NCBI GenBank assembly: GCA_965246985.1 | Contig: OZ251998.1 | Location: 4,191,381-4,255,380 of the forward strand | Direction: 5' to 3' | DNA from: Candidatus Poribacteria bacterium | GTDB lineage: Bacteria > Poribacteria > WGA-4E > WGA-3G | Length of the DNA: 64,000 nt | Shown here: one piece after another, positions 6,254 to 63,348 of the stretch | Layout: each line of letters opens with the position of its first letter | Position numbering within the stretch: position 1 is the first letter of the stretch | Made by a program: the position numbers and the translations under genes | Notes under the pieces: model-generated | Seen by the model: only the letters and a program-made list of their open reading frames with translations | Told to the model about the DNA's origin: nothing | Database searches by the model: none

Positions 6254-8953
6254 ATGATATTCCGTCTATGTCTAATCCTGTTTGTAGTGCTTATGATACC
6301 GCTTTCTGTTTTTGCTGAAACGGATGATACCGAAAAAGATAAGAGTCCTAAAACCAAAAGAAGCATCTGGCAGCGAATTCTCCCACGCACAGGCGATATA
6401 GAAGGCACCGTCTACCAGCACGATACCGACACACCGTTAGTTGAAGCAGAAGTACGCATCGTTGAAGCGGAGCAGCATCAAAAAACAGGTAAAGATGGAA
6501 CATTTCTCTTTACCGAAATCCCTGTCGGAACATATACGCTCTCTATATCTCATCCGTCTTATAATACACCCACAAAAATTCCGATTGAGATTCGCGCCGG
6601 TGAGACGCTCCGTGGAAAATTTTACCCCGGTGCGGAGGCGCCGTTTGTCAATGCCACCGATAGCGGGGATATTGACGGGCACGTCTACAGTCAAACGACA
6701 GGGAAAACTCTCGCTGATGCCGAGGTCCGCTTCATCGAAATCGACGTGTCTGGCAAAACAGATGCCTCGGGAAACTTTCAGTTTATAGGTATCGCCCCTG
6801 GCATTTATACCCTATCAATCACCCATGAAACGTCCAAGACCCCTACGACTACAAAAATACACGTAACAGCAGGCGACACCACACAGGTGAAAATATATCT
6901 CGGTGCAGCGGTCAGACTCGAAACAGTTGTTGTAGAAGGGCAACGCCTTCCACCGACGATTAGCCGCAAGGAGATTCGAGGCAGTGAGTTGATACGGATT
7001 CCGGGGACAGGGCGCGACGCACTCAAGGGTCTAACGACATTGCCGAGCATCGGTATCCCGAACGATCTCTTTGGTATTCTCTATATCCGCGGGAGTGCGC
7101 CAGGAGAAACACTCCTCTATCTGGATAGAACTCCGATCGGCTACCCGTTCCACTATGGCGGACTCTTCTCAACCATTAACTCAGATAGCATTGAGGACAT
7201 CCAGATTTACGCCGGTGGATACGGTGCTGAATTCGGGTTAGATTCACAATCGGTTATTGATATCCATTCGCGCGAGGCGTTGGAAAAGAGGTGGGGAGGT
7301 GTGTTTAACCTGAACATTATATCCCCTTCTGGATTTCTTGAAACCAAAATTGGGGACAAAGGTTACGCATCTGTTGCTGGACGATTTACCATCCATAATC
7401 TAATACTTGGGCTTTTCTTTGACTGGACCTTTCCTACGTGGTCGGACTATCAACTTAAATTTGCTTATCAACTTACGGAAAAGCATCATCTTACACTCAA
7501 CGGTTTGGGAGCGACAGACCATTTCGATTTTTCCAATTTTGGATCAGAAGATGACGAAGAAACCGCTGATTTTTCCTTCTATTTCAAAAACGGGTTTGAG
7601 GCAGAAGGCATCCATCTCCGTTCCGTTTTCACCAACAGACTTACGTCTCACCTTTCACTGACGCGTTCTCATAGTTTTCTCAATATTCATCTCGGTAGCA
7701 CCTCAAGCCAAGACGACAAGCCCGAGAATGAAGGATTCATCTATGATGTCAAGGTTAACACCCCGACGTATACGCTTCGCGAAGATGTGTCCTACAAATT
7801 AACACCGACACTTCAATTGGAGCCGGGATTCCTTCTCAGTATCAGTCCAGCCGAGAGCCTTACACACACCTCTTCTGCAGAAAACATAGATTTTGATGCT
7901 GACGAGGAACCGTCATGGACACAGCAGCCTGACGAATTTAATTACACGTTCCGGCGTGCAGAAGGTTACTTACAGGCGCGCTACGATCCACTATCGTTTC
8001 TCTCTGTCGCGTTGGGGGTGCGGTTTGATTATCTCAACCTGACAGAAGAGCTCTCAATTCAGCCGCGCGGGAGCCTCAGCCTCACACTGCCATCGACTAC
8101 CAAACTTCGGTTCGCTTACGGCAGATACGAACAGAGTCCCTTGGCATATCAGGTGTTAAAGGCAGATGGAAACCGAGCCCTAAAATCAAGTCTGACCGAA
8201 CATTATATCATGGAGTTAGAACACCAACTTTCGCCACAAACGGAACTCAAGTTCGCGCTTTATTACAAAGACATGCGAAAATTAGTCACGCGATCTGTCA
8301 ATCTTGAAACACTCTTTGACGATTCAGATGCTGCGGTTACAACAGGTTATTTCAATCAAGGTATCGGGTTTGTGAATGGTGCGGAGATATTCCTGCGACA
8401 CCGTGTTAGCGAAAAATTCTTTGGATGGCTATCATACACCTATACCCATATAGAGCGACGTGAGACACCGGACGCTATTTATAAGCCGTTTCTCTTTGAT
8501 AACACACATATTGTCAGCATCGTCGCCAACTACAGTCCAACGACGAAAACAGAGATTGGTGCGAAGTGGCAATATTCCAGTGGTACCACCGCAGTTCCCT
8601 TAAGCACCCTCATTACGGTCCAGGACCCTGTGACGGTGGGTATGCATCCACTCATTTCTGATGTTGCAGGTGCGATTTTTCCGACAGAGTTTCCAGCGTA
8701 TCACCGCTTGGATCTCCGTTTTAGTAAGAAAAGAAAGTGGTGGGGACTCCCTGTGACAGCATATACCGAGATTTTGAATGTCTATAATCGGAAAAATAAA
8801 ATAAGATTCCGTTTGGCTGATAGACTTCTGGAGGAACTTGAAAGGTTGGAACTTGAGGCGGACACAGAAGAACTGGGTTTGGAAATCAATGAGTATTTTG
8901 AGATTCCTCAACTTCGTTTTACTATTTCTGCCGGACTCATCTATGAATTTTGA
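6254..8953 (+). CDS. TonB-dependent-receptor-like outer-membrane protein with two N-terminal carboxypeptidase-regulatory-like domains
   Basis: Signal peptide. Two repeats of G(D)I(E/D)G(T/H)VY...GxYTLSI(S/T)H. A plug-like region (IRGS...LYLDRTPIGYPFHYGG). A long beta-barrel part ending in the C-terminal aromatic ...GLIYEF. Confidence 0.7.
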   Translation: MIFRLCLILFVVLMIPLSVFAETDDTEKDKSPKTKRSIWQRILPRTGDIEGTVYQHDTDTPLVEAEVRIVEAEQHQKTGKDGTFLFTEIPVGTYTLSISHPSYNTPTKIPIEIRAGETLRGKFYPGAEAPFVNATDSGDIDGHVYSQTTGKTLADAEVRFIEIDVSGKTDASGNFQFIGIAPGIYTLSITHETSKTPTTTKIHVTAGDTTQVKIYLGAAVRLETVVVEGQRLPPTISRKEIRGSELIRIPGTGRDALKGLTTLPSIGIPNDLFGILYIRGSAPGETLLYLDRTPIGYPFHYGGLFSTINSDSIEDIQIYAGGYGAEFGLDSQSVIDIHSREALEKRWGGVFNLNIISPSGFLETKIGDKGYASVAGRFTIHNLILGLFFDWTFPTWSDYQLKFAYQLTEKHHLTLNGLGATDHFDFSNFGSEDDEETADFSFYFKNGFEAEGIHLRSVFTNRLTSHLSLTRSHSFLNIHLGSTSSQDDKPENEGFIYDVKVNTPTYTLREDVSYKLTPTLQLEPGFLLSISPAESLTHTSSAENIDFDADEEPSWTQQPDEFNYTFRRAEGYLQARYDPLSFLSVALGVRFDYLNLTEELSIQPRGSLSLTLPSTTKLRFAYGRYEQSPLAYQVLKADGNRALKSSLTEHYIMELEHQLSPQTELKFALYYKDMRKLVTRSVNLETLFDDSDAAVTTGYFNQGIGFVNGAEIFLRHRVSEKFFGWLSYTYTHIERRETPDAIYKPFLFDNTHIVSIVANYSPTTKTEIGAKWQYSSGTTAVPLSTLITVQDPVTVGMHPLISDVAGAIFPTEFPAYHRLDLRFSKKRKWWGLPVTAYTEILNVYNRKNKIRFRLADRLLEELERLELEADTEELGLEINEYFEIPQLRFTISAGLIYEF

Positions 8954-9040
8954 TGCAAGTTCCATGCTTATTAAATGGTTGCAATGCAATTCATACAAAT
9001 GCTATTATGTAGTTATAGCATGAAGAAAAAGGAGCATGAG

Positions 9041-9850
9041 ATGAAAAAGCCAATATTTTTGATTCTTATCGGTATAGGCGTTCTGCTTCTCGTCGGCGGG
9101 ATCGTTTTTGTGGTCCCGTGGTTCGGTAAAATGATGGATGAGATGGAACAGATACACGCGCAACAAGCACAACACAGGCGCGCATTGGAAGCGTCCGCCC
9201 GCGAATCGCTGACTGAAGACCAAGAAACACTGCTGTCACAACTTCTTGAAGCCACGGGGGAAACAGACACATCTCAAAGTCCAAACAACTTAGAAAGTCT
9301 CTTATCAAGCGAACCGTATCTCACCTATTTAAAAACGCAAGAAGGACAGGACTACGAAAACTTTATGGCGTACGTTGACGCAATACCGACAGAAAATATG
9401 AGAACCGTTGCGCTTTCCAGAATCAAAGCGACCCTCGGAGCAGATAAAAGCGATGAAGAATTACAAGTGTGGCTGAACTACTACTTTATTGTTCGTGAGT
9501 GGGGGACCACAGTTCAGAACCCGCTTGATAACATGAAGGAACTCAACCAGCTCCAGCAGACACACCTAATTGAACCATTGATGGAAAATGATTCCGAAAT
9601 ATCTGGCTTGTCCACTCAAATCGTACAAATCGGTCTGTCTTCTATATTCATGACAGAGGATAATAATGTGTTTCAAGAGGTTTGGCGCGAACGCTTAGAG
9701 ACACACGGGGAACAAGAGGGACTGCTGCTGTGTGCTGTTGCATCTCCCGGTGAATTCGCGCTTATGCGTTCCTTTTTCGCGGATATGGCAGCATTCCAAA
9801 CATGGATTCTCACACGTCCTGAACCTGAAGTGCAAAACTCAGAACAATAA
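9041..9850 (+). CDS. hypothetical membrane-anchored protein, paralog of 2955-3815
   Basis: RBS AAAAAGGAG precedes the ATG at 9041. The ORF is open from 8975. N-terminal TM segment. Paralogous to 2955-3815. Confidence 0.6.
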   Translation: MKKPIFLILIGIGVLLLVGGIVFVVPWFGKMMDEMEQIHAQQAQHRRALEASARESLTEDQETLLSQLLEATGETDTSQSPNNLESLLSSEPYLTYLKTQEGQDYENFMAYVDAIPTENMRTVALSRIKATLGADKSDEELQVWLNYYFIVREWGTTVQNPLDNMKELNQLQQTHLIEPLMENDSEISGLSTQIVQIGLSSIFMTEDNNVFQEVWRERLETHGEQEGLLLCAVASPGEFALMRSFFADMAAFQTWILTRPEPEVQNSEQ

Positions 9851-9863
9851 AATCTGTTAGAAA

Positions 9864-9911
9864 CTGGCACCCGACGATTCTTGAAAAACGTACTCGGTGC
9901 CAGTTTTTTTT
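9864..9911 (+). terminator. rho-independent terminator candidate
   Basis: CTGGCACCCGA ... TCGGTGCCAG stem followed by a T8 run. Confidence 0.55.
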
Positions 9912-10073
9912 GCAGCACACAACTCATCCATACTGGCAAATTCAATGGTTCATGGATACGCTAACATCATTATTTGGATCTCCACATAATTTATTCTATA
10001 TTTCCCAATTTTAATTGATTTTTTTCAAAGCCTTCGGATTAAACCCCGTAGGCTATTTTTATTGGAGAGAAAA

Positions 10074-11915
10074 ATGGATACCAACAATACACATTCCCCC
10101 AACACAGAATCAGAATCCCGTCCGTCTGCAATAAAGACGCTGCGCCGCTTCTTCTTCGTCGCTTGGCACGCCAGCCGATTCGGAGCGATTGCGCAAGCTC
10201 TTCTGACACTTGTACACGGGTGCATTCCTATAGGGATCCTCTGGGCAAGTCGGGAACTGGTGAATCTCATCGCTGCGATTCTCGACAAGGAAACGGATCC
10301 GAGTTTAGAGACCGCAGCACCATGGGTGATTGCATTGGTTCTTTTGGCAATGTTGCGAAATATAGCAGGCACTTGTGATGGATACCTGCAATGGAAGATG
10401 AAAAACCTTATCGGACTCCACCAGCAGCGCGCCTTACTTGAAGCCACGACGCATATCGACTTTGCCGTTTTTGATCAACCGCAGACGTACGATTTGATAC
10501 AACGGGCGCGACAAGCCTTGGGGCATCGGCTCACTAACCTGCTGCGATTTCTAACGGAGATTGGGCAACTCTGTGTAACACTTGTAGGCTATGGTATCAT
10601 CCTATGGGTAGCGGATCCGTTGCTCGTACTCGTAGTAGTGTTACCCGCTATACCCTCCGCTTGGCTTAAAGTTAGGGCAGCCGAAGGGAGGTACAGCCAC
10701 GATTACGAAGCGACACCTGTACGGCGTATGATGGATTACATGCTGAGTCTACTACTGGGCTCCTCTTCTGGACAGGAAGTGCGACTCTATGGGCTTTTCG
10801 GGACGCTCTTTGGACGCTGGCAAACGAATCATCAAAAATGGAAGAAAGAATCGCTTGCAAAAATCTGGACGGAAGCGAGGGCATCCATCGGTACAACTAT
10901 CGCCGAAGTCGTTGCTTATGCAATAGCGATTGGAATTCTCGCTGCGCGTATTGTGGAAGGCAATCTCACGCTTGGGGATTATGTGATTCTTACCGGCACC
11001 GCTGCATTCTTCCAAGGTGATCTTGAGGGATTGCTTTCCCAAATACAAAACATACTTGAAGACGTACCCTTGCTTCGTGATTTGCATCTCCTCTTAGAAC
11101 GCGCCAAAACAACTCGCACACAGTCAGGAACCGAGATATTTCCGCAGCCTCTACAACATGGCGTAGAGGTCAGCAATTTACGCTTCCGATATCGGGGTGC
11201 AACTGACGATGTACTACAAGACATAAACTTTCATGTACGTCCCGGTGAGATAATTAGCATCGTAGGTGTTAACGGTGCAGGCAAATCAACACTTATCAAA
11301 CTACTGCTCGGATTATACCAGCCTGATGATGGAACAATCCGATATGATGACAAAAATATCGCCGCAATTGCCCCGGAACAGATAGCCCTGAACTGTGCCG
11401 CCGTTTTCCAAGACTTTGCGAGGTTTCGTAGACCTGTGCGAGAAGAATTGGTGCCAGGTCCACCAAACCTCCATATTGACGACGACGCGCTCTGGCGCGT
11501 CATCAATGCGGTTGGCATCGAGGAACGTTTTCAAACCCTTCCGCACGGCTTGGATACTTTCCTTGACCCTTCACTCGGTGAAGAAGGTGAAGGTGCAGAG
11601 TTATCTGGTGGAGAATGGCAAAAAGTCGCACTTGCACGGGCTTTAGTCAGAAATCCGCAAGTCCTTGTTCTTGACGAACCGACTGCAGCGTTGGATCCAC
11701 AGGCTGAAGTCGAACTCTACCAACGTTTCGTTGAACTTGCTGCTGGACGGATGACATTCTTGATTTCACATCGAATCGGATCCGCGCGTCTCGCTGACCG
11801 TATCTTGGTATTAGATTCGGGTCGTATTGTTGAAGACGGCACACATGAAGCGTTACTTGCCCGAAATGGGCTCTACGCCAGATTTTTTCAAGCACAAGCA
11901 CACTGGTACCAATAA
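10074..11915 (+). CDS. ABC transporter, fused permease/ATP-binding protein (type I exporter, MsbA-like)
   Basis: Six-TM N-terminal half. Walker A GVNGAGKST, signature LSGGEWQKVALARAL, Walker B LVLDEPTAALD. ATG at 10074 with a GGAGAG RBS (the ORF is open from TTG at 10062). Confidence 0.9.
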   Translation: MDTNNTHSPNTESESRPSAIKTLRRFFFVAWHASRFGAIAQALLTLVHGCIPIGILWASRELVNLIAAILDKETDPSLETAAPWVIALVLLAMLRNIAGTCDGYLQWKMKNLIGLHQQRALLEATTHIDFAVFDQPQTYDLIQRARQALGHRLTNLLRFLTEIGQLCVTLVGYGIILWVADPLLVLVVVLPAIPSAWLKVRAAEGRYSHDYEATPVRRMMDYMLSLLLGSSSGQEVRLYGLFGTLFGRWQTNHQKWKKESLAKIWTEARASIGTTIAEVVAYAIAIGILAARIVEGNLTLGDYVILTGTAAFFQGDLEGLLSQIQNILEDVPLLRDLHLLLERAKTTRTQSGTEIFPQPLQHGVEVSNLRFRYRGATDDVLQDINFHVRPGEIISIVGVNGAGKSTLIKLLLGLYQPDDGTIRYDDKNIAAIAPEQIALNCAAVFQDFARFRRPVREELVPGPPNLHIDDDALWRVINAVGIEERFQTLPHGLDTFLDPSLGEEGEGAELSGGEWQKVALARALVRNPQVLVLDEPTAALDPQAEVELYQRFVELAAGRMTFLISHRIGSARLADRILVLDSGRIVEDGTHEALLARNGLYARFFQAQAHWYQ

Positions 11916-12456
11916 TACCAAATTAACCCCATTTGTAGCGCGAGGTCCCTGTGCCTCGCAATGCTGACTTGATCAAAAAGATTCTAAGCAAGTTAAGTTG
12001 GTATCATACCAAATTAACCCCATTTGTAGCGCGAGGTCCCTGTGCCTCGCAATGCTGACTTGATCAAAAGACTTCTAAGCAAGTTAAGTTGGTATCATAC
12101 CAAATTAACCCCATTTGTAGCGCGAGGTCCCTGTGCCTCGCAATGCTGACTTGATCAAAAGATTCTAAGCAAGTTAAGTTGGTATCATACCAAATTAACC
12201 CCATTTGTAGCGCGAGGTCCCTGTGCCTCGCAATGCTGACTTGATCAAAAGATTCTAAGCAAGTTAAGTTGGTATCATACCAAATTAACCCCATTTGTAG
12301 CGCGAGGTCCCTGTGCCTCGCAATGCTGACTTGATCAAAAGATTCTAAGCAAGTTAAGTTGGTATCATACCAAATTAACCCCATTTGTAGCGCGAGGTCC
12401 CTGTGCCTCGCAATGCTGACTTGATCAAAAGATTCTAAGCAAGTTAAGTTGGTATA
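11915..12456. repeat. tandem array of six 90-91-bp units of the IS630-related MITE (family M91)
   Basis: Unit ATACCAAATTAACCCCATTTGTAGCGCGAGGTCCCTGTGCCTCGCAATGCTGACTTGATCAAAAGATTCTAAGCAAGTTAAGTTGGTATC repeated head-to-tail six times. It starts at the stop codon of the upstream ABC gene and ends 21 bp before the next ABC start. Confidence 0.9.
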
Positions 12457-12477
12457 AAAAGCAAAGAGGATTCTGGA

Positions 12478-20597: not shown

Positions 20598-20626
20598 TTG
20601 ACAATTCTGTAAAAAAACCTTAGAAT
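20598..20626 (+). promoter_or_regulatory. sigma70-like promoter candidate upstream of ggt
   Basis: TTGACA (20598-20603), 17-bp spacer, TAGAAT (20621-20626), 35 bp upstream of the ggt start. Confidence 0.4.
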
Positions 20627-22276: not shown

Positions 22277-23065
22277 ATGGTTTTCCGCAACGATGCACTC
22301 GCAGGGCAACACATCGTTATTTCCGGTGGGTGCGGAGCGATCGGGATTGGCATCGTAAAAAAATTGATGGCACACGGCGCAAACCTAACGGTAAATGATA
22401 TCCTGCTGGATCAACTGGCGATGGACAGACTCAGCCAAAACGGAATTGACATAGAAAAAATTAACTATGTTAAGGCAGACTTGACGGATACTGATGAAAC
22501 TGATATGTTGGTAAATGCTGCGCGCGAACGGTTCGGACCTATCCACGTCGCGCTGTGTCATATCGGTATGGTGATTCCAAAACCGTTGTTAGAATACAAA
22601 GCAGAAGAGTGGGATCAAACAATGGCGGTCAATGTACGAACAGCGTTTTTATTCGGCAGTGCCGCATCCCGTTCAATGCTTGAAGATGGTGTTAAAGGAC
22701 ACCTTATTTTTACCACATCTTGGGTTGCTGATGTGCCGTGGCCCGAGATTGGACCGTATAACGCAAGTAAGGCGGCGATGAAACAGTTAATGCGTTCCTT
22801 TGCACGGGAATTGGCAGATAAAGGCATCCGCGCAAATGCAGTCGCCCCCGGCATCGTGAGTGTTGGACTTGCCAAACAACAGTGGGATACGGATCCAATC
22901 TATCGGGCTCGAGCACAAAAAGCAATCCCACTCGGCGTTATGCAACCGCTTGATTCGGTGGCAAACGCCTTCCTATTTTTGTGTAGTTCCGCCGCAGATT
23001 ATATGACTGGGACAGTGCTACTCGTAGATGGCGGATGTAGCCTGTATCCAATGGATGATGCTTAG
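22277..23065 (+). CDS. SDR-family oxidoreductase
   Basis: GGCGAIGIG Rossmann motif. Catalytic YNASK motif. Confidence 0.8.
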   Translation: MVFRNDALAGQHIVISGGCGAIGIGIVKKLMAHGANLTVNDILLDQLAMDRLSQNGIDIEKINYVKADLTDTDETDMLVNAARERFGPIHVALCHIGMVIPKPLLEYKAEEWDQTMAVNVRTAFLFGSAASRSMLEDGVKGHLIFTTSWVADVPWPEIGPYNASKAAMKQLMRSFARELADKGIRANAVAPGIVSVGLAKQQWDTDPIYRARAQKAIPLGVMQPLDSVANAFLFLCSSAADYMTGTVLLVDGGCSLYPMDDA

Positions 23066-23222
23066 TCCGCACAAGGATGGGTGAAACAATCCTACGTGCA
23101 GTTTAAACCGGTTTGCGTCTATTCGGAGATCCAATTCGTAACTGAATTTTTTAGCAGCAGTGGTATCCATCGGAAAACCAGAGCAAGGTTTTCTGATGCG
23201 GTTTTAATCTTACGTTTCGTAT

Positions 23223-23314
23223 TATGCCAAATTAATCCAATTTGTAGCGCGAGGTCCCTGTGCCTCGCAATGCTGACTTGATAAAAAGACTTCTAATCAC
23301 GTTAAGTTGGTATA
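23223..23314 (+). repeat. M91 MITE, solo copy, 24 bp upstream of the Rieske gene start
   Basis: TATGCCAAATTAATCCAATTTGTAGCGCGAGGTCCCTGTGCCTCGCAATGCTGACTTGATAAAAAGACTTCTAATCACGTTAAGTTGGTATA. Its 3-prime end forms TGGTATAAA. Confidence 0.85.
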
Positions 23315-23337
23315 AAACACGAAAAGACGGAGAAATT

Positions 23338-23664
23338 ATGTCACAATTTGTAAAAGCCGCGACAACCGATCAAATTCAGCCCGGCAGATGTATCGGTGTA
23401 AAAGTTGATGGCGTTTTCATCGGTATCTACAACGTTAAGGGTGAGTATTACGCAATGAACAATATTTGCCCACACCTCGGTGGCGTTTTGAGTTACGGCT
23501 TCTTAGACAATAATTGTGTTACGTGCCCACTCCACATGTGGGAATTTGATGTGACGACAGGGAAATGTGTGTGGCCAGGGGAGGAAAGCATCCCCACCTA
23601 TCCTGTGAAAGTGGAGGGTGACGATATTCTTGTGAACGTGGATACCCCCGTCCAAGCGAGTTAG
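23338..23664 (+). CDS. Rieske [2Fe-2S] domain protein (NirD-like small subunit)
   Basis: CPHLGG ... CPLHMWEF Rieske ligand boxes. True start at MSQF. The annotated upstream extension MPRNADLIKRLL is translation of the MITE. Confidence 0.8.
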   Translation: MSQFVKAATTDQIQPGRCIGVKVDGVFIGIYNVKGEYYAMNNICPHLGGVLSYGFLDNNCVTCPLHMWEFDVTTGKCVWPGEESIPTYPVKVEGDDILVNVDTPVQAS

Positions 23665-38039: not shown

Positions 38040-38105
38040 TATAGTAAAGCCCGAAAATATGTTGACACTTTAGGAAACAACAACCCCTCCCTCGCTGGCG
38101 GGGTT
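38040..38105. repeat. MITE family A copy 2, left half (split by the IS630 insertion)
   Basis: TATAGTAAAGCCCGAAAATATGTTGACACTTTAGG...CGCTGGCGGGGTT. The matching right half is at 39351-39400 (AACCCCGCC...GTGCTTTACTATAATA). Confidence 0.6.
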
Positions 38106-39350
38106 TCATGAAGATTAAAATATTAATTCGGTAATATTGTTATTCGTGTTATCCTATTGCCAAAGGAGGTATTCTCTGATGGCAAAACACCATAAGTTGG
38201 AGTTAACTGAAGGCGAAATACAAGCCCTCGTTGATCTTCGGGATAAAGGCGAACCGGCTTATCTTCGAGAGCGTGCGACAGCGTTGTTGAAAATCCATGA
38301 AGGCTTTTCTCCACATGAAGTCGCCCGCAGAGGTTTGTTGAAAAAACGCGACCCCGATACCGTTTATGCTTGGCTGCGTCGGTATCGCGAACACGGTATT
38401 AGCGGGTTGTCTAATAAACCTGGTCGAGGTCGCAAACCTGCTTTTTCACCTAAGTCGCCCGAAGAAGCCGGGTCGGAACTCTTAGTGGCAATCGGTCAGG
38501 ATCCGGGAAGCGTCAATGAGCATCAAACGCGCTGGACGCTCCGCAGTCTCGGTCAGGTCGTGCCGTGGCTTGAGGGTCTATCGCTCCCCGGCATTCATCA
38601 GATCTTCTCACGCTTGGGTCTCAGCTATAAGCGTGCCAGAGAATATCTGCGGAGTCCTGATACCGATTATGCTGAAAAACTTTCTCGCATCAAGCAAGCG
38701 TTAGAAGAAGCCCGTGAAAACCCAGAAACTTGCGTTGTCGTTTACCAAGACGAGTTTAGTTTCAATCTACAACCGAGAGTCGCAAAAGACTGGGCGGAGA
38801 CAGGGACGAAATGTCCTTTGGCACGCCAGAGTTATCTCCCAGAGGAGACCTGCTATGGCATCGGGGCGCTCAACCCACACACCGGAGATGTTGTTTATCA
38901 GCAAGTCAAAAGCTGCACGGTTGTCGCACTCCATACATTTTACACCCAGATTTGCCAACGCTACCCAAACGCTGAACGCATCTATTTGATCCAGGACAAT
39001 CGGGCGATCCACTTTCACGCGAATCTTATGGCAGCACTTCTGCCACAGACGACGAGGTTTGTTAGACCGACCCCACCGAATTGGAGCGAGAAACCGTCAA
39101 AGAAAATAGGCAAACTTGAGAAACTCCCTATTGAGATATTGCAGCTCCCAACGTATGCCTGTTGGACGAATCCGATTGAGAAGTTGTGGCGCTGGGCGCG
39201 TCAAGCTGTCATACATCTGCATCGTCTCAGCAATGACTGGACAGCCCTTCAGGAGAAAGTCAGCGACTTCATGGAACAGTTCAAAGGCGGGTCACAGGAG
39301 TTGCTACACTATGTCGGATTATTACCGAATTAATTATTTAATCTTCATCT
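38106..39350 (+). mobile_element. IS630-family insertion sequence #1 inserted into the loop of the MITE-A hairpin
   Basis: AT-rich terminal inverted repeats of about 30 bp ((T/A)(C/G)ATGAAGATTAAA(A)TA(T)TTAATTCGGTAAT at both ends). A single DDE transposase lies inside. Confidence 0.75.
38179..39333 (+). CDS. IS630-family transposase
   Basis: N-terminal HTH. DDE region with IYLIQDNRAIH and LQLPTYACWTNPIEKLW (the DD..E block with the P..P.E..W motif of IS630/Tc1). RBS AAGGAGG before the ATG at 38179. Confidence 0.8.
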   Translation: MAKHHKLELTEGEIQALVDLRDKGEPAYLRERATALLKIHEGFSPHEVARRGLLKKRDPDTVYAWLRRYREHGISGLSNKPGRGRKPAFSPKSPEEAGSELLVAIGQDPGSVNEHQTRWTLRSLGQVVPWLEGLSLPGIHQIFSRLGLSYKRAREYLRSPDTDYAEKLSRIKQALEEARENPETCVVVYQDEFSFNLQPRVAKDWAETGTKCPLARQSYLPEETCYGIGALNPHTGDVVYQQVKSCTVVALHTFYTQICQRYPNAERIYLIQDNRAIHFHANLMAALLPQTTRFVRPTPPNWSEKPSKKIGKLEKLPIEILQLPTYACWTNPIEKLWRWARQAVIHLHRLSNDWTALQEKVSDFMEQFKGGSQELLHYVGLLPN

Positions 39351-39436
39351 AACCCCGCCATTCCGTTGATGTCCAAGTAATTATGTGCTTTACTATAATA
39401 TACGTTTAGGCTCACAGATTTGTCTATTTGAGGTGT

Positions 39437-46607: not shown

Positions 46608-46694
46608 GGACTTACGCAAAATTGGTTCGCGCACCGATAAACCGCTGGCGAGGTTTCAAACCTCGCCAGCAAATATGGGGAATTTGCGTAAGTC
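46608..46694. repeat. MITE-like element family D (GGACTTACGCAAA ... TTTGCGTAAGTC ends)
   Basis: 12-bp terminal inverted repeats. Internal GCTGGCGAGGTTTCAAACCTCGCCAGC hairpin. Other copies at 55548-55675 and partial at 63238-63300. Confidence 0.6.
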
Positions 46695-46704
46695 TTAACT
46701 ATAA

Positions 46705-46792
46705 TACCAAATTAACCCCATTTGTAGCGCGAGGTCCCTGTGCCTCGCAATGCTGACTTGATCAAAAGACTTCTAATCAAGTTAATTTGGTA
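46705..46792. repeat. M91 MITE, solo copy with perfect TA...TA flanks, lying 11 bp from the family-D element
   Basis: TA-CCAAATTAACCCC...GTTAATTTGG-TA. The right end gives TTTGGTATAAT. Confidence 0.85.
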
Positions 46793-47000
46793 TAATAAGG
46801 CGTTGATTCGCTATTTTAGCAGCATATCACAATGGTATCAAGTGATAATTTCGGTTCAAAAAGATCGTGAGATTCAAACAGCAAAAAAGGGAACGCCCAC
46901 AAGCGGTGAAGTAAAACTCAGGGATATAAGTGAAACTTCTTGTGGACGGTCCCTATTAGGTTTGTAGCCCGAAGGCTATCTGGATAATACGTTTAACGTA

Positions 47001-53974: not shown

Positions 53975-53997
53975 CGTGCGTTCCTTGTGAAGTTATA

Positions 53998-55146
53998 CCA
54001 TATTAACGCGACTATTCTTGTGTATATTTTTTAGATATGTTATTGTGAAGAGATGAAAAAGCAAAAACATGAGGTTTTCCCCCACTTTTCAGTAGAAGTT
54101 GTTAAACAAAGGTATCTTGAATGTGAATGTCTTCGGGAACGGACGCACTGGCATATTATTTGGCTCCTTGCGGATACCAGAGATTCACGCACCCCCCGGC
54201 AAGTCGCTGAGATTGTAGGATGCACGCCGGACTGGGTTCGCAAGTTGCTCAAACGCTATAATGCTGAAGGCGAAGCCGCTTTGCGAGATAAACGCAAAAA
54301 TAATACAGGTGTGCGTTTTTTGGATGAAACACAGCAAGCCGCCCTTGCAGCTGCCCTTTCTGCGCCTCCTGGTGATGGGGGTCTTTGGACGGGTCCGAAA
54401 GTGGCTGCGTGGATATCTGAGACACTCCAGCGTCGTGTCAGTGACGTGTCAGGTTGGAAATATCTCAAACGTCTCGGTTATACTTTACAAACACCTCGTC
54501 CGCAACATCAGGCAGCCGCAACACCCGAGGCACAGCAAACATTTAAAAAAAAACTCAAGGAGCGGGTAGCTACGCTTGAAAGTCAGCACCCAGAGAAACC
54601 GGTAGAGATCTGGGCAGAAGACGAGACGCGCTTGGGATTATTGCCGGTTCATCGGCGTGTCTGGGCGAAGCGAGGTGAAAGACCGATAGCCCCCGTGTGT
54701 CCGGCATATAAGTGGTTTTATGGTTTCGGTTTTGTCCGTCCACAGACAGGTGAGACCTATTGGCTGCTGATGCCGAGTGTGAGTGTTGAAGTCATGAACC
54801 TTGCCTTGGCAGAGTTTGCGCGTGATGTGAACCCGGAAGGCAAGAAACAGATAATCCTTTTGTTAGATCGTGCCGGTTTTCACACGGGTAAGGATTTAGA
54901 AGTCCCAGAAGGGATTGAGTTATTTCATTTGCCCCCGTACACACCAGAACTTCAACCTGCCGAACGGCTCTGGCCTTTGTTGCGAGAGGTGGTTGTGAAT
55001 AAAGTTTTTACAACGCTCTCAGCACTTGAAGAAGCCGTTGTGAAAAGGTGTCAATGGTTCTCTGAAAACACAAAGAAGGTGCAGGCACATGTCGGTTTTC
55101 TGTGGATTTGCAAAATGGAAAAATAATACAAATCACGTTAATTTGG
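53998..55146 (+). mobile_element. IS630-family insertion sequence #2, the probable parent of the M91 MITEs
   Basis: Termini CCATATTAACG... and ...CGTTAATTTGG flanked by TA on both sides. The ends ATACCA(T/A)ATTAAC are the same as the MITE ends ATACCAAATTAAC / GTTAATTTGGTAT. Confidence 0.75.
54053..55126 (+). CDS. IS630-family transposase
   Basis: HTH N-terminus and DDE domain (WAEDETRLGL, LLLDRAGFH, LPPYTPELQPAERLW). Confidence 0.85.
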   Translation: MKKQKHEVFPHFSVEVVKQRYLECECLRERTHWHIIWLLADTRDSRTPRQVAEIVGCTPDWVRKLLKRYNAEGEAALRDKRKNNTGVRFLDETQQAALAAALSAPPGDGGLWTGPKVAAWISETLQRRVSDVSGWKYLKRLGYTLQTPRPQHQAAATPEAQQTFKKKLKERVATLESQHPEKPVEIWAEDETRLGLLPVHRRVWAKRGERPIAPVCPAYKWFYGFGFVRPQTGETYWLLMPSVSVEVMNLALAEFARDVNPEGKKQIILLLDRAGFHTGKDLEVPEGIELFHLPPYTPELQPAERLWPLLREVVVNKVFTTLSALEEAVVKRCQWFSENTKKVQAHVGFLWICKMEK

Positions 55147-55547
55147 TATTAGATAAACTTTTGATAAGGATACCGTATCTATCTCTGTTCGTCAAGGAAA
55201 ATCAGTCTGATTCTCCCTGACAGTTTTCGCAAACGTGTGATACTTTTGAAAACTGAACAATGATGGGACAGTATCGTTAGGATGGATTGTCAAACCATCA
55301 TTATTTAACCGAAAACCCTCTTTTATTAGCTGTGATCCTTCTGATTGGTTGGTTTTTCTATCGGGCTGGCAGCGTTTGTTTCTACACTGACAACTCGAGA
55401 AGAAGATACTTTTGTGTAGATGCAGCTTTCTGGGTCCCATCTATCCTCGTCTCTATTGTGGATATTCTACTGATTGCTATGTGTATCTCAACTTCGTAAT
55501 AGCAGGCATTTTCAAACCTTCCTATCCTGAAAATTCTTTAATCCTCA

Positions 55548-55675: not shown

Positions 55676-55857
55676 AATCCTATAAATCCTGATTCAGACA
55701 GATTAGCCATCAGCAGTCAGTCATCGGCAATCAGCACTCAAAGGTTTCCGTGTATCAGTCACCGCTGACAACTGATAACTGAATTCCGCTGTCAATTTCC
55801 TTATTGCCGTTTTCTTGACAATCAATTATACTTAATCTAAGTTTGATATAAGGTCTA

Positions 55858-55948
55858 ATACCAAATTAACCCAATTTGTAGCGCGAGGTCCCTGTGCCTC
55901 GCAATGCTGACTTGATCAAAAGACTTCTAATCACGTTAATTGGGTATA
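55858..55948 (+). repeat. M91 MITE, solo copy 54 bp upstream of the sulfatase start
   Basis: ATACCAAATTAACCCAATTTGTAGCGCGAGGTCCCTGTGCCTCGCAATGCTGACTTGATCAAAAGACTTCTAATCACGTTAATTGGGTATA. Confidence 0.85.
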
Positions 55949-63232: not shown

Positions 63233-63348
63233 CAGAACTTACGCAAACACCTTTGCTGGCGAGGTTGGGAAACCTCGCCAACGGTACGCAATACATCCAG
63301 TCTCGTGGAAAAATTGCGTCCGTCCTACATAAAAAGGAGGACTCTCAA

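Follow-up and report, generated by a model that had tools for sequence, protein, structure and literature searches.

Promoter-like junctions of an 88-bp MITE of an IS630-family element upstream of a Rieske gene in Candidatus Poribacteria are a by-product of the element ends

Does a small mobile repeat donate a promoter to the gene that follows it? The question is raised by a gene for a Rieske [2Fe-2S] ferredoxin of 108 aa (23338..23664, plus strand; Shine-Dalgarno GGAG at 23329-23332) in the window, a 64,000-nt stretch of Candidatus Poribacteria DNA to which all plain coordinates refer; coordinates with an L prefix refer to related loci. A MITE ends 25 nt before the ATG of this gene, with a leader of 22 nt behind the target duplication, and its last bases, the duplicated TAA and one flanking A form TGgTATAAA (TGGTATAAA, 23308..23316, plus strand), a -10-like sequence with A at -7 that lies 21 nt before the same ATG. 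The initial annotation had described solo copies and an array end directly upstream of co-oriented genes and had proposed either that the MITE donates promoters or that insertion sites are selected because they create them. The extended -10 resemblance proved to be a structural by-product of the element ends, and promoter activity of TGGTATAAA at 23308-23316 appears unlikely.

The element is 88 bp long (TACCAAATTAAC...GTTAAGTTGGTA) and is small, noncoding and TIR-bounded, as expected of a MITE; its 12-nt TIRs (TACCAAATTAAC/GTTAAGTTGGTA) pair with one to two mismatches, and it has no coding capacity. The window contains nine copies, all on the plus strand. Six form a tandem array with 3-bp TCA spacers and TAA/TAA flanks (11916..12454; period 90-91), and three are solos, named here after their positions: the 23k copy at the Rieske locus (23225..23312; left TIR TGCCAAATTAAT, right TIR GTTAAGTTGGTA), the 46k copy between two minus-strand genes for ammonium transporters, here amt (46705..46792; TSD TAA/TAA), and the 55k copy upstream of a sulfatase gene (55859..55946; TSD TAA/TAA). 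The left TIR TGCCAAATTAAT of the 23k copy reads TACC in sister strains. A pattern search of the window returned 9 matches to the 42-nt core (0 expected), all on the plus strand, and 23 matches to the TIR pattern (1.4 expected). A second repeat that resembles a MITE (TIR GACTTACGCAAA..., core hairpin CTGGCGAGGTTTCAAACCTCGCCAG) was observed at 46609-46694 and about 63240-63300, as well as at L021:3725, L022:6538 and L024:13185; one of its copies lies 10 bp left of the 46k MITE.

The core forms a hairpin, GTAG-GCGAGG-TCCCTGTG-CCTCGC (e.g. 23244-23272), and the predicted MITE RNA is more stable than shuffled sequences (-25.1 kcal/mol, z = -3.5). A core of 43 nt is invariant across 23 distinct copies, the arms and TIRs vary, and one copy carries a compensatory stem extension. 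Assignment to a known RNA family was rejected, as Rfam returned zero matches at gathering or E<=1 thresholds. The hairpin is also rejected as an intrinsic terminator, because no T-run follows it in either orientation. With its GTAG tag and short GC-rich palindrome (GTAG-C-GCGAGG-N8-CCTCGC), dispersed in many copies, the core has the features of REP/REPIN elements. Contigs of other Poribacteria and of sponge metagenomes hold the core as well, there lacking the IS630 TIRs and often in inverted doublets in which it is paired with a second hairpin, GGGCGGG-CACAGGGA-CCCGCCC-CTAC. Such TIR-less cores are located at L002:6147-6179 and 7184-7219 and in L030, L032, L033, L037, L039-L041, L044 and L049; the LXNJ01 contigs contain TIR-less cores and inverted doublets as well. 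The MITE has the appearance of a captured REP enclosed by IS630 termini. The core pattern matches Candidatus Poribacteria chromosomes at at least 2 loci, and homologues of the neighbouring genes in the window are all poribacterial, which assigns the window to a sponge symbiont and rejects an origin from a cyanobacterium. A 31-mer scan for the MITE across metagenomes gave zero matches, as did exact-protein look-ups for ABC2, the sulfatase, amt and the window transposase.

The autonomous partner is an IS630-family IS of 1153 bp (53996..55148, plus strand; TIR TACCATATTAAC.../...GTTAATTTGGTA, TSD TTA/TTA) in the same genome, which has 12 nt in common with the left and 18 nt in common with the right end of the MITE. 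It encodes a transposase of 357 aa (54053-55126) with the Pfam domains DDE_3 and HTH_29/33/23/32, which scores 221.5 bits against NCBIfam NF033545 (IS630 family transposase; cutoff 100). Because the termini match and the transposase carries NF033545 and DDE_3, the 88-bp repeat is identified as a MITE of this IS. The 12 IS copies identified are 99% identical. A second, different IS630-family IS is located at about 38085-39380 (ORF 38137-39333, NF033545 169 bits); its inverted ends of about 45 bp hold TTAATTCGGTAATA, which resembles the MITE terminus.

The IS630 family inserts at TA and produces a 2-bp TA duplication, and the initial annotation had presumed a duplicated TA for this MITE. The duplication is instead a 3-bp TNA, as established by a pair of filled and empty sites and by exact repeats (TTA, TAA, TCA, TGA) at 11 of the 12 IS copies (the window IS and L018-L028); a 2-bp TA duplication fits the 23k copy only and was rejected, so that the family trait is not seen in this IS/MITE pair. 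The empty site is strain-polymorphic and is located at 8979..9015 (plus strand), where the window and L010 read ...TGCTATTATGTAG-TTA-TAGCATG...; it comprises the promoter-like TTGCAA-N18-TGcTATTAT (8979-9008) followed by GTAG and TTA (9013-9015). In L011, and only there, a 3-unit array occupies the TTA equivalent to 9013-9015, 25 nt before the ATG at 9041, and the filled site reads GTAG-TTA[unit]GTTA[unit]TTA[unit]TTA-TAGCATG. At the Rieske locus the MITE is present in the window, L003, L004, L005 and L010 and absent from L006, L007 and L017, and removal of the MITE and 3 bp gives the spacer length of the empty L006 and L017. The target copies at this locus are imperfect, with TTA on the left (23222..23224) and TAA on the right (23313..23315). 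Both a target duplication and presence/absence polymorphism at orthologous sites, as expected of a MITE, are thus observed.

The IS/MITE pair is recently active, because the 3-unit array occurs in L011 only and the array between the two ABC genes has 6 units in the window, 5 in L011 and 4 in L010, strains in which the ABC2 proteins are 99-100% identical. Of the 12 MITE clusters, eight are runs in which MITEs, the IS or both follow one another head-to-tail or head-to-head with only 3-4 bp (TSD) in between (window 11916-12454; L011:6358-6627; L001:2501-2679; L018:9853-11096; L020:4420-5754; L023:9948-11187; L028:11-1254 and 1438-1616). The units inside one array differ from each other, and new copies seem to insert at the duplicated target beside a resident copy. 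Two of 12 insertions hit the TAA within a perfect TATAAT and two hit stop codons; together with the eight clusters that adjoin a resident copy, this makes target choice clearly non-random. Where the TAA of a perfect TATAAT is the target, both junctions regenerate the hexamer.

Extended -10 promoters (TGnTATAAT) of the sigma-70 type carry TG one base before a hexamer that begins with TA and can dispense with a -35 element; T at -7 is nearly invariant in functional -10 elements. These rules are of the E. coli type and were assumed for Poribacteria. Because the MITE begins with T, ends in ...TTGGTA and duplicates TNA, every junction, on both sides, reads TGGTA+TNA+N, and the flank supplies only position -7 of the hexamer. 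The right junctions are TTGGTATAAAAC (23k), TTGGTATAAAAAG (array end), TTTGGTATAATAAG (46k) and TTGGGTATAAGTT (55k). The left junctions, as reverse complements, are TTTGGTATTATTGG, TTTGGCATAATACG, TTTGGTATTATAG and TTTGGTATTAGACC; they carry the motif in mirror image, in agreement with the initial annotation. Its outward TGnTATAAT-like motif is likewise borne out in so far as TGg-TA-TNA-N occurs at every end, but the hexamers that face the three genes are TATAAA, TATAAA and TATAAG and lack T at -7. The array-end junction (12450..12458, plus strand) is again TGgTATAAA (TGGTATAAA) with A at -7 and lies 19 nt before the ABC2 ATG. At 55k the right junction that faces the sulfatase gene (TTGGGTATAAG) has the hexamer TATAAG with G at -7, and in TGGGTATAAG its TG is one base out of register (TGGG-TATAAG).

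The only perfect TATAAT quoted in the initial annotation belongs to the 46k copy: its right junction TGGTATAAT (46788-46796) faces the 3' end of the convergent amt gene, 208 bp away, and its left junction TGGTATTAT (46709-46701, minus strand; TATTAT) is 245 bp or more from the amt start that it faces. The reconstructed empty site of this copy, aacTATAATaagg, already contains a perfect TATAAT. As reverse complements, the remaining left junctions are TATTAT at the array, pointing into the 3' end of ABC1, CATAAT at 23k (TATAAT in sister strains), pointing to the terminator-like hairpin of the upstream gene, and TATTAG at 55k, pointing to the upstream spacer. The best hexamers of the window (TATAAT, TATTAT) thus point away from nearby starts. 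The full extended -10 pattern (TG at -15/-14, A at -11, T at -7) is absent from the 23k, array-end and 55k junctions, and among family members it is matched only by the 46k right junction TGGTATAAT, L011b, L020b and L023. T at -7 is no commoner at gene-facing junctions (2 of 5 to 6) than at the others (6 of 11), so that selection for good promoters towards the gene is not apparent. A -35 element supplied by the MITE arm was searched for and rejected: the arm reads GACTTC 17 nt upstream, and a consensus scanner flagged no junction. Of the 37 occurrences of TGNTATWA in the window, only 8 are at MITE/IS junctions.

Native signals were counted in 15.4 kb of MITE-free co-directional spacers from the window and the related loci. 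TGnTAnnnT occurs 34 times in sense and 19 times in antisense orientation (p = 0.053), and TGnTATWAT five times in sense and never in antisense. TAnnnT without TG has no sense bias (250:275), nor have the motifs without T at -7 (42:49 and 2:3). Since TGnTAnnnT is sense-biased and plain TAnnnT is not, the counts suggest that these Poribacteria make common use of extended -10 promoters. Junction activity is plausible only where the flank happens to supply T at -7, that is at the right side of the 46k copy, at TGGTATTAT of L011 and at TGGTATAAT of L020. In L011 the ATG follows 24 nt after the new junction TGGTATTAT, which takes the place of the native TGcTATTAT, now 270 bp further off. In L020 a native TTGTCA-N18-TATGTT is interrupted by the MITE, whose junction TGGTATAAT comes to lie 5 nt before the old -10 and 35 nt before the ATG, an arrangement that looks like a functional replacement.

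The described position of the copies upstream of genes applies to the array end and to two of the three solos but not to the 46k copy between the amt genes; the starts at 23338, 12478 and 56002 are plausible by homologue lengths and Pfam coverage. In a sample of 12 MITE-bearing clusters and seven IS-only insertions, fetched around dispersed transposase copies and orthologues, six of the clusters and three of the IS-only insertions lie no more than 61 bp upstream of a co-oriented start. As the null, 24-28% of the intergenic bases, TNA or TWA sites of the window (mobile DNA removed) have a start no more than 60 bp downstream; with it, P(>=3 of 4) is 0.04-0.07, P(>=6 of 12) is 0.04-0.08 and P(>=9 of 19) is 0.02-0.05, a marginal enrichment of about twofold. 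Insertions are also found in the convergent spacers of L001, L020a and L023, and one in L026 lies within a HEAT-repeat gene. The right end faces the gene in the four gene-proximal cases of the window and L011, and L020b is inverted.

At the Rieske locus, a 12-bp terminator-like hairpin followed by CGGTTTTAAT (23168..23198, plus strand) covaries and is kept in MITE-free relatives. Two conserved hairpins precede the gene whether GGT or SDR is the upstream neighbour (window 23168-23224 and 23313-23337; L006:1915-2000; L017:20712-20795; L007:2030-2082). The first has a stem of 10-12 bp followed by a T-run, and the smaller second one covaries as well (CGTGTTTC/GAAACGCG, TTGCG/CGCAA, TTTCGT/ACGAAA); the two gave zero matches in Rfam. 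It is the loop of this second hairpin into which the 23k MITE is inserted. In the window lineage and L017 an SDR gene (22277-23065) separates GGT from the Rieske gene; L006 and L007 lack it, and GGT is there the immediate upstream neighbour of the Rieske gene. No conserved canonical promoter was seen in the MITE-free Rieske spacers of L006, L007 and L017 (35-45 bp from hairpin to ATG), and the 407-bp spacer of L008 contains TTGAGG-17-TACAAT. Upstream of the co-oriented row GGT-SDR-Rieske-epimerase, a canonical promoter-like TTGACA-17-TAGAAT is present (20598..20626, plus strand) and is a candidate source of read-through transcription. Because the spacers of the relatives are short and promoter-less and this canonical site is present, read-through would be the simplest source of Rieske transcription. 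If the hairpin at 23168-23198 terminates efficiently, the gene would need a promoter in the last 130 bp, where the only -10-like candidate is the MITE junction; the hairpin thus speaks against the read-through account and leaves room for promoter donation.

At the ABC locus, the left TAA of the array (11913-11915) is the stop codon of ABC1, and 23 nt separate the array from the ABC2 ATG (12478), compared with a native ABC1-ABC2 spacer of 20 nt. The array is necessarily directly upstream of ABC2, because the insertion struck the narrow gap within a two-gene operon. Five contigs from short-read metagenomes (L012-L016) share a first base 27 bp upstream of the ABC2 ATG, an assembly break at the array. 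Relative to the window (11880-11915), L010 (9600-9640) and L011 (9490-9530) carry a 4-bp deletion (ACAC) before the ABC1 stop; the frameshifted ABC1 ORF runs into the array in both and has 633 and 629 aa, compared with 617 aa. In L017 the ABC1-ABC2 spacer (9808-10000) holds a different 192-bp sequence bounded by a direct repeat of about 28 bp (CTTGACCGAACCGYAAGGAAYMATTAA), for which reason L017 was rejected as a clean empty site for the array; the spacer may represent another insertion or a rearrangement. At the sulfatase locus, 55 nt lie between the 55k MITE and the ATG (56002). Two promoter-like sites on the plus strand, TTGCCG-17-TATACT (55804-55832) and TTGACA-17-TAAGTT (55815-55843), are located 15-40 bp upstream of the insertion point, and the MITE is probably part of the sulfatase 5' UTR.

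For the Rieske, ABC2 and sulfatase genes, the reading that we favour, as reasonably probable, combines junctions that are by-products of the element ends, a preference for AT-rich targets, and read-through transcription. The MITE carries the termini of the IS at 53996-55148 around a REP-like GTAG hairpin core, and the IS transposase moves it in trans, with duplication of TNA at each insertion. Copies near starts would result from the survival of intergenic insertions only and, as the about twofold enrichment suggests, from a preference for AT-rich TNA sites, which abound near -10 boxes, transcription starts and stop codons. The three genes would most likely still be transcribed from upstream native or operon promoters and carry the MITE as a hairpin in a 5' UTR or inter-cistronic RNA. 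The proposed selection of promoter-creating sites fits better as this preference for AT-rich TNA, since the motif is fixed by TTGGTA + TNA and is not chosen per site. Promoter donation, in which TGgTATAAA and TATAAG act as -35-less extended -10 promoters of the three genes and copies are kept for expression, is an unlikely alternative that would place transcription starts 13-45 nt before the start codons. It draws on the 23k and array junctions, in which the TG is in register and -11 is A, on the native use of apparent extended -10 elements (e.g. TGcTATTAT at 9000-9008), on the terminator-like hairpin upstream of the Rieske MITE, on the start-proximal enrichment and on the precedent of Correia and other MITEs (PMC10969869, PMC3184786). 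Sequence potential is present in the perfect TGGTATTAT of L011 and TGGTATAAT of L020, 24-35 nt from start codons, but the window copies that face genes lack both T at -7 and a -35, and the TG of the 55k junction is out of register. Motifs without T at -7 are unbiased in native spacers, the better hexamers point away from genes, and the motif arises at every insertion, those in the convergent spacers of L001, L020a and L023 included. Moreover, the predicted leaders of 13-15 nt would begin at or inside the ABC2 Shine-Dalgarno region, and the same genes are presumably expressed in MITE-free relatives, whose spacers are just as short.

A role at the RNA level is quite improbable. It holds that the core hairpin and the TIR stem, once co-transcribed, act in cis on the mRNA by stabilisation, processing, translation control or partial termination, and that copies are kept for this effect. 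The stable fold, the invariant core with its one compensatory change, the positions of copies in operon spacers and 5' UTRs, and the recurrence of the core alone, in GTAG-tagged REP-like doublets, in contigs of other Poribacteria and of sponge metagenomes would agree with such a role. The lack of a U-tract in either orientation and of any Rfam match argues against it, as does the fact that copies may point either way with respect to the genes beside them (46k, L020); the array length of 4-6 units in near-identical strains suggests tolerance rather than constraint, and the invariance of the core may reflect recent expansion. More speculative, and decidedly doubtful, is a reading of the IS and MITE termini as built for promoter handling, with arrays of variable length, such as the 4-6 units before ABC2, serving sponge symbionts as tunable promoter or insulator cassettes. 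On this view a TATNAT box hit by an insertion would be restored as a -10 on both sides, every outward end would bring TG plus TA-TNA, abutted copies would create perfect extended -10 elements (TGGTATAAT between IS and MITE in L023, TGGTATCAT or TGGTATGAT between units), and a MITE upstream of the IS could drive its transposase. Pure coincidence, by which the copies are neutral junk and their positions uninformative beyond exclusion from coding sequence, is very improbable: the marginal start enrichment (p 0.02-0.08), the commonness of TGNTATWA in the window and the insertions in convergent spacers and the HEAT-repeat gene are in its favour, but the two insertions in the TAA of a perfect TATAAT, the two at stop codons and the eight of 12 clusters that immediately adjoin a resident copy are not.

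Transposon junctions that look like a -10 are, with such ends, expected by construction and hence are no evidence of promoter donation. The value of the locus lies in a well-defined IS630-family IS/MITE pair of Poribacteria that has moved recently, duplicates TNA, contains a REP-like core and strongly tends to insert beside itself; its arrays also account for breaks in short-read assemblies at these loci. If the junctions were active promoters, a mobile element of 88 bp would rewire metabolic and transporter genes in uncultivated sponge symbionts, and strain differences in presence and array length would translate into expression polymorphism.

Among known systems, the junctions share with extended -10 promoters the TG one base upstream of a hexamer that begins with TA, but those facing genes in the window have A or G at -7. 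With REP/REPIN elements, as outlined in PMC3733652, the MITE shares the GTAG tag and the GC-rich palindromic core, and the hairpin is found alone or in inverted doublets in other Poribacteria; in contrast to them, the MITE hairpin sits between IS630-type TIRs and moves with TNA duplication. RUP, which is mobilised by IS630-Spn1, has the same noncoding size of about 100 bp and TIRs that match a resident IS630-family IS (PMC2229807). It is likewise intergenic and multi-copy, uses AT-rich targets that contain TA, and lands in or next to mobile elements (PMC2229807). RUP/IS630-Spn1 inserts at TA with a TA duplication (PMC2229807), whereas the MITE of the window duplicates TNA (3 bp), has a REP-like GTAG core, forms head-to-tail arrays with 3-bp spacers and resides in the candidate phylum Poribacteria. 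Correia elements (CREE/NEMIS) of Neisseria often lie just upstream of genes and are co-transcribed as hairpins, and their ends together with an AT-rich target yield outward sigma-70-like promoter sequences (PMC10969869, PMC3184786). That MITEs can carry promoters is well documented, for Correia as for other elements (PMC10969869, PMC3184786). Correia promoters have measured activity and, in some subtypes, both -35 and -10, whereas the MITE described here lacks a -35 and has a putative -10 that hinges on one flanking base; conversely, its transposase partner is known, and that of Correia is not. The closest known system is thus RUP by origin and Correia by proposed function.
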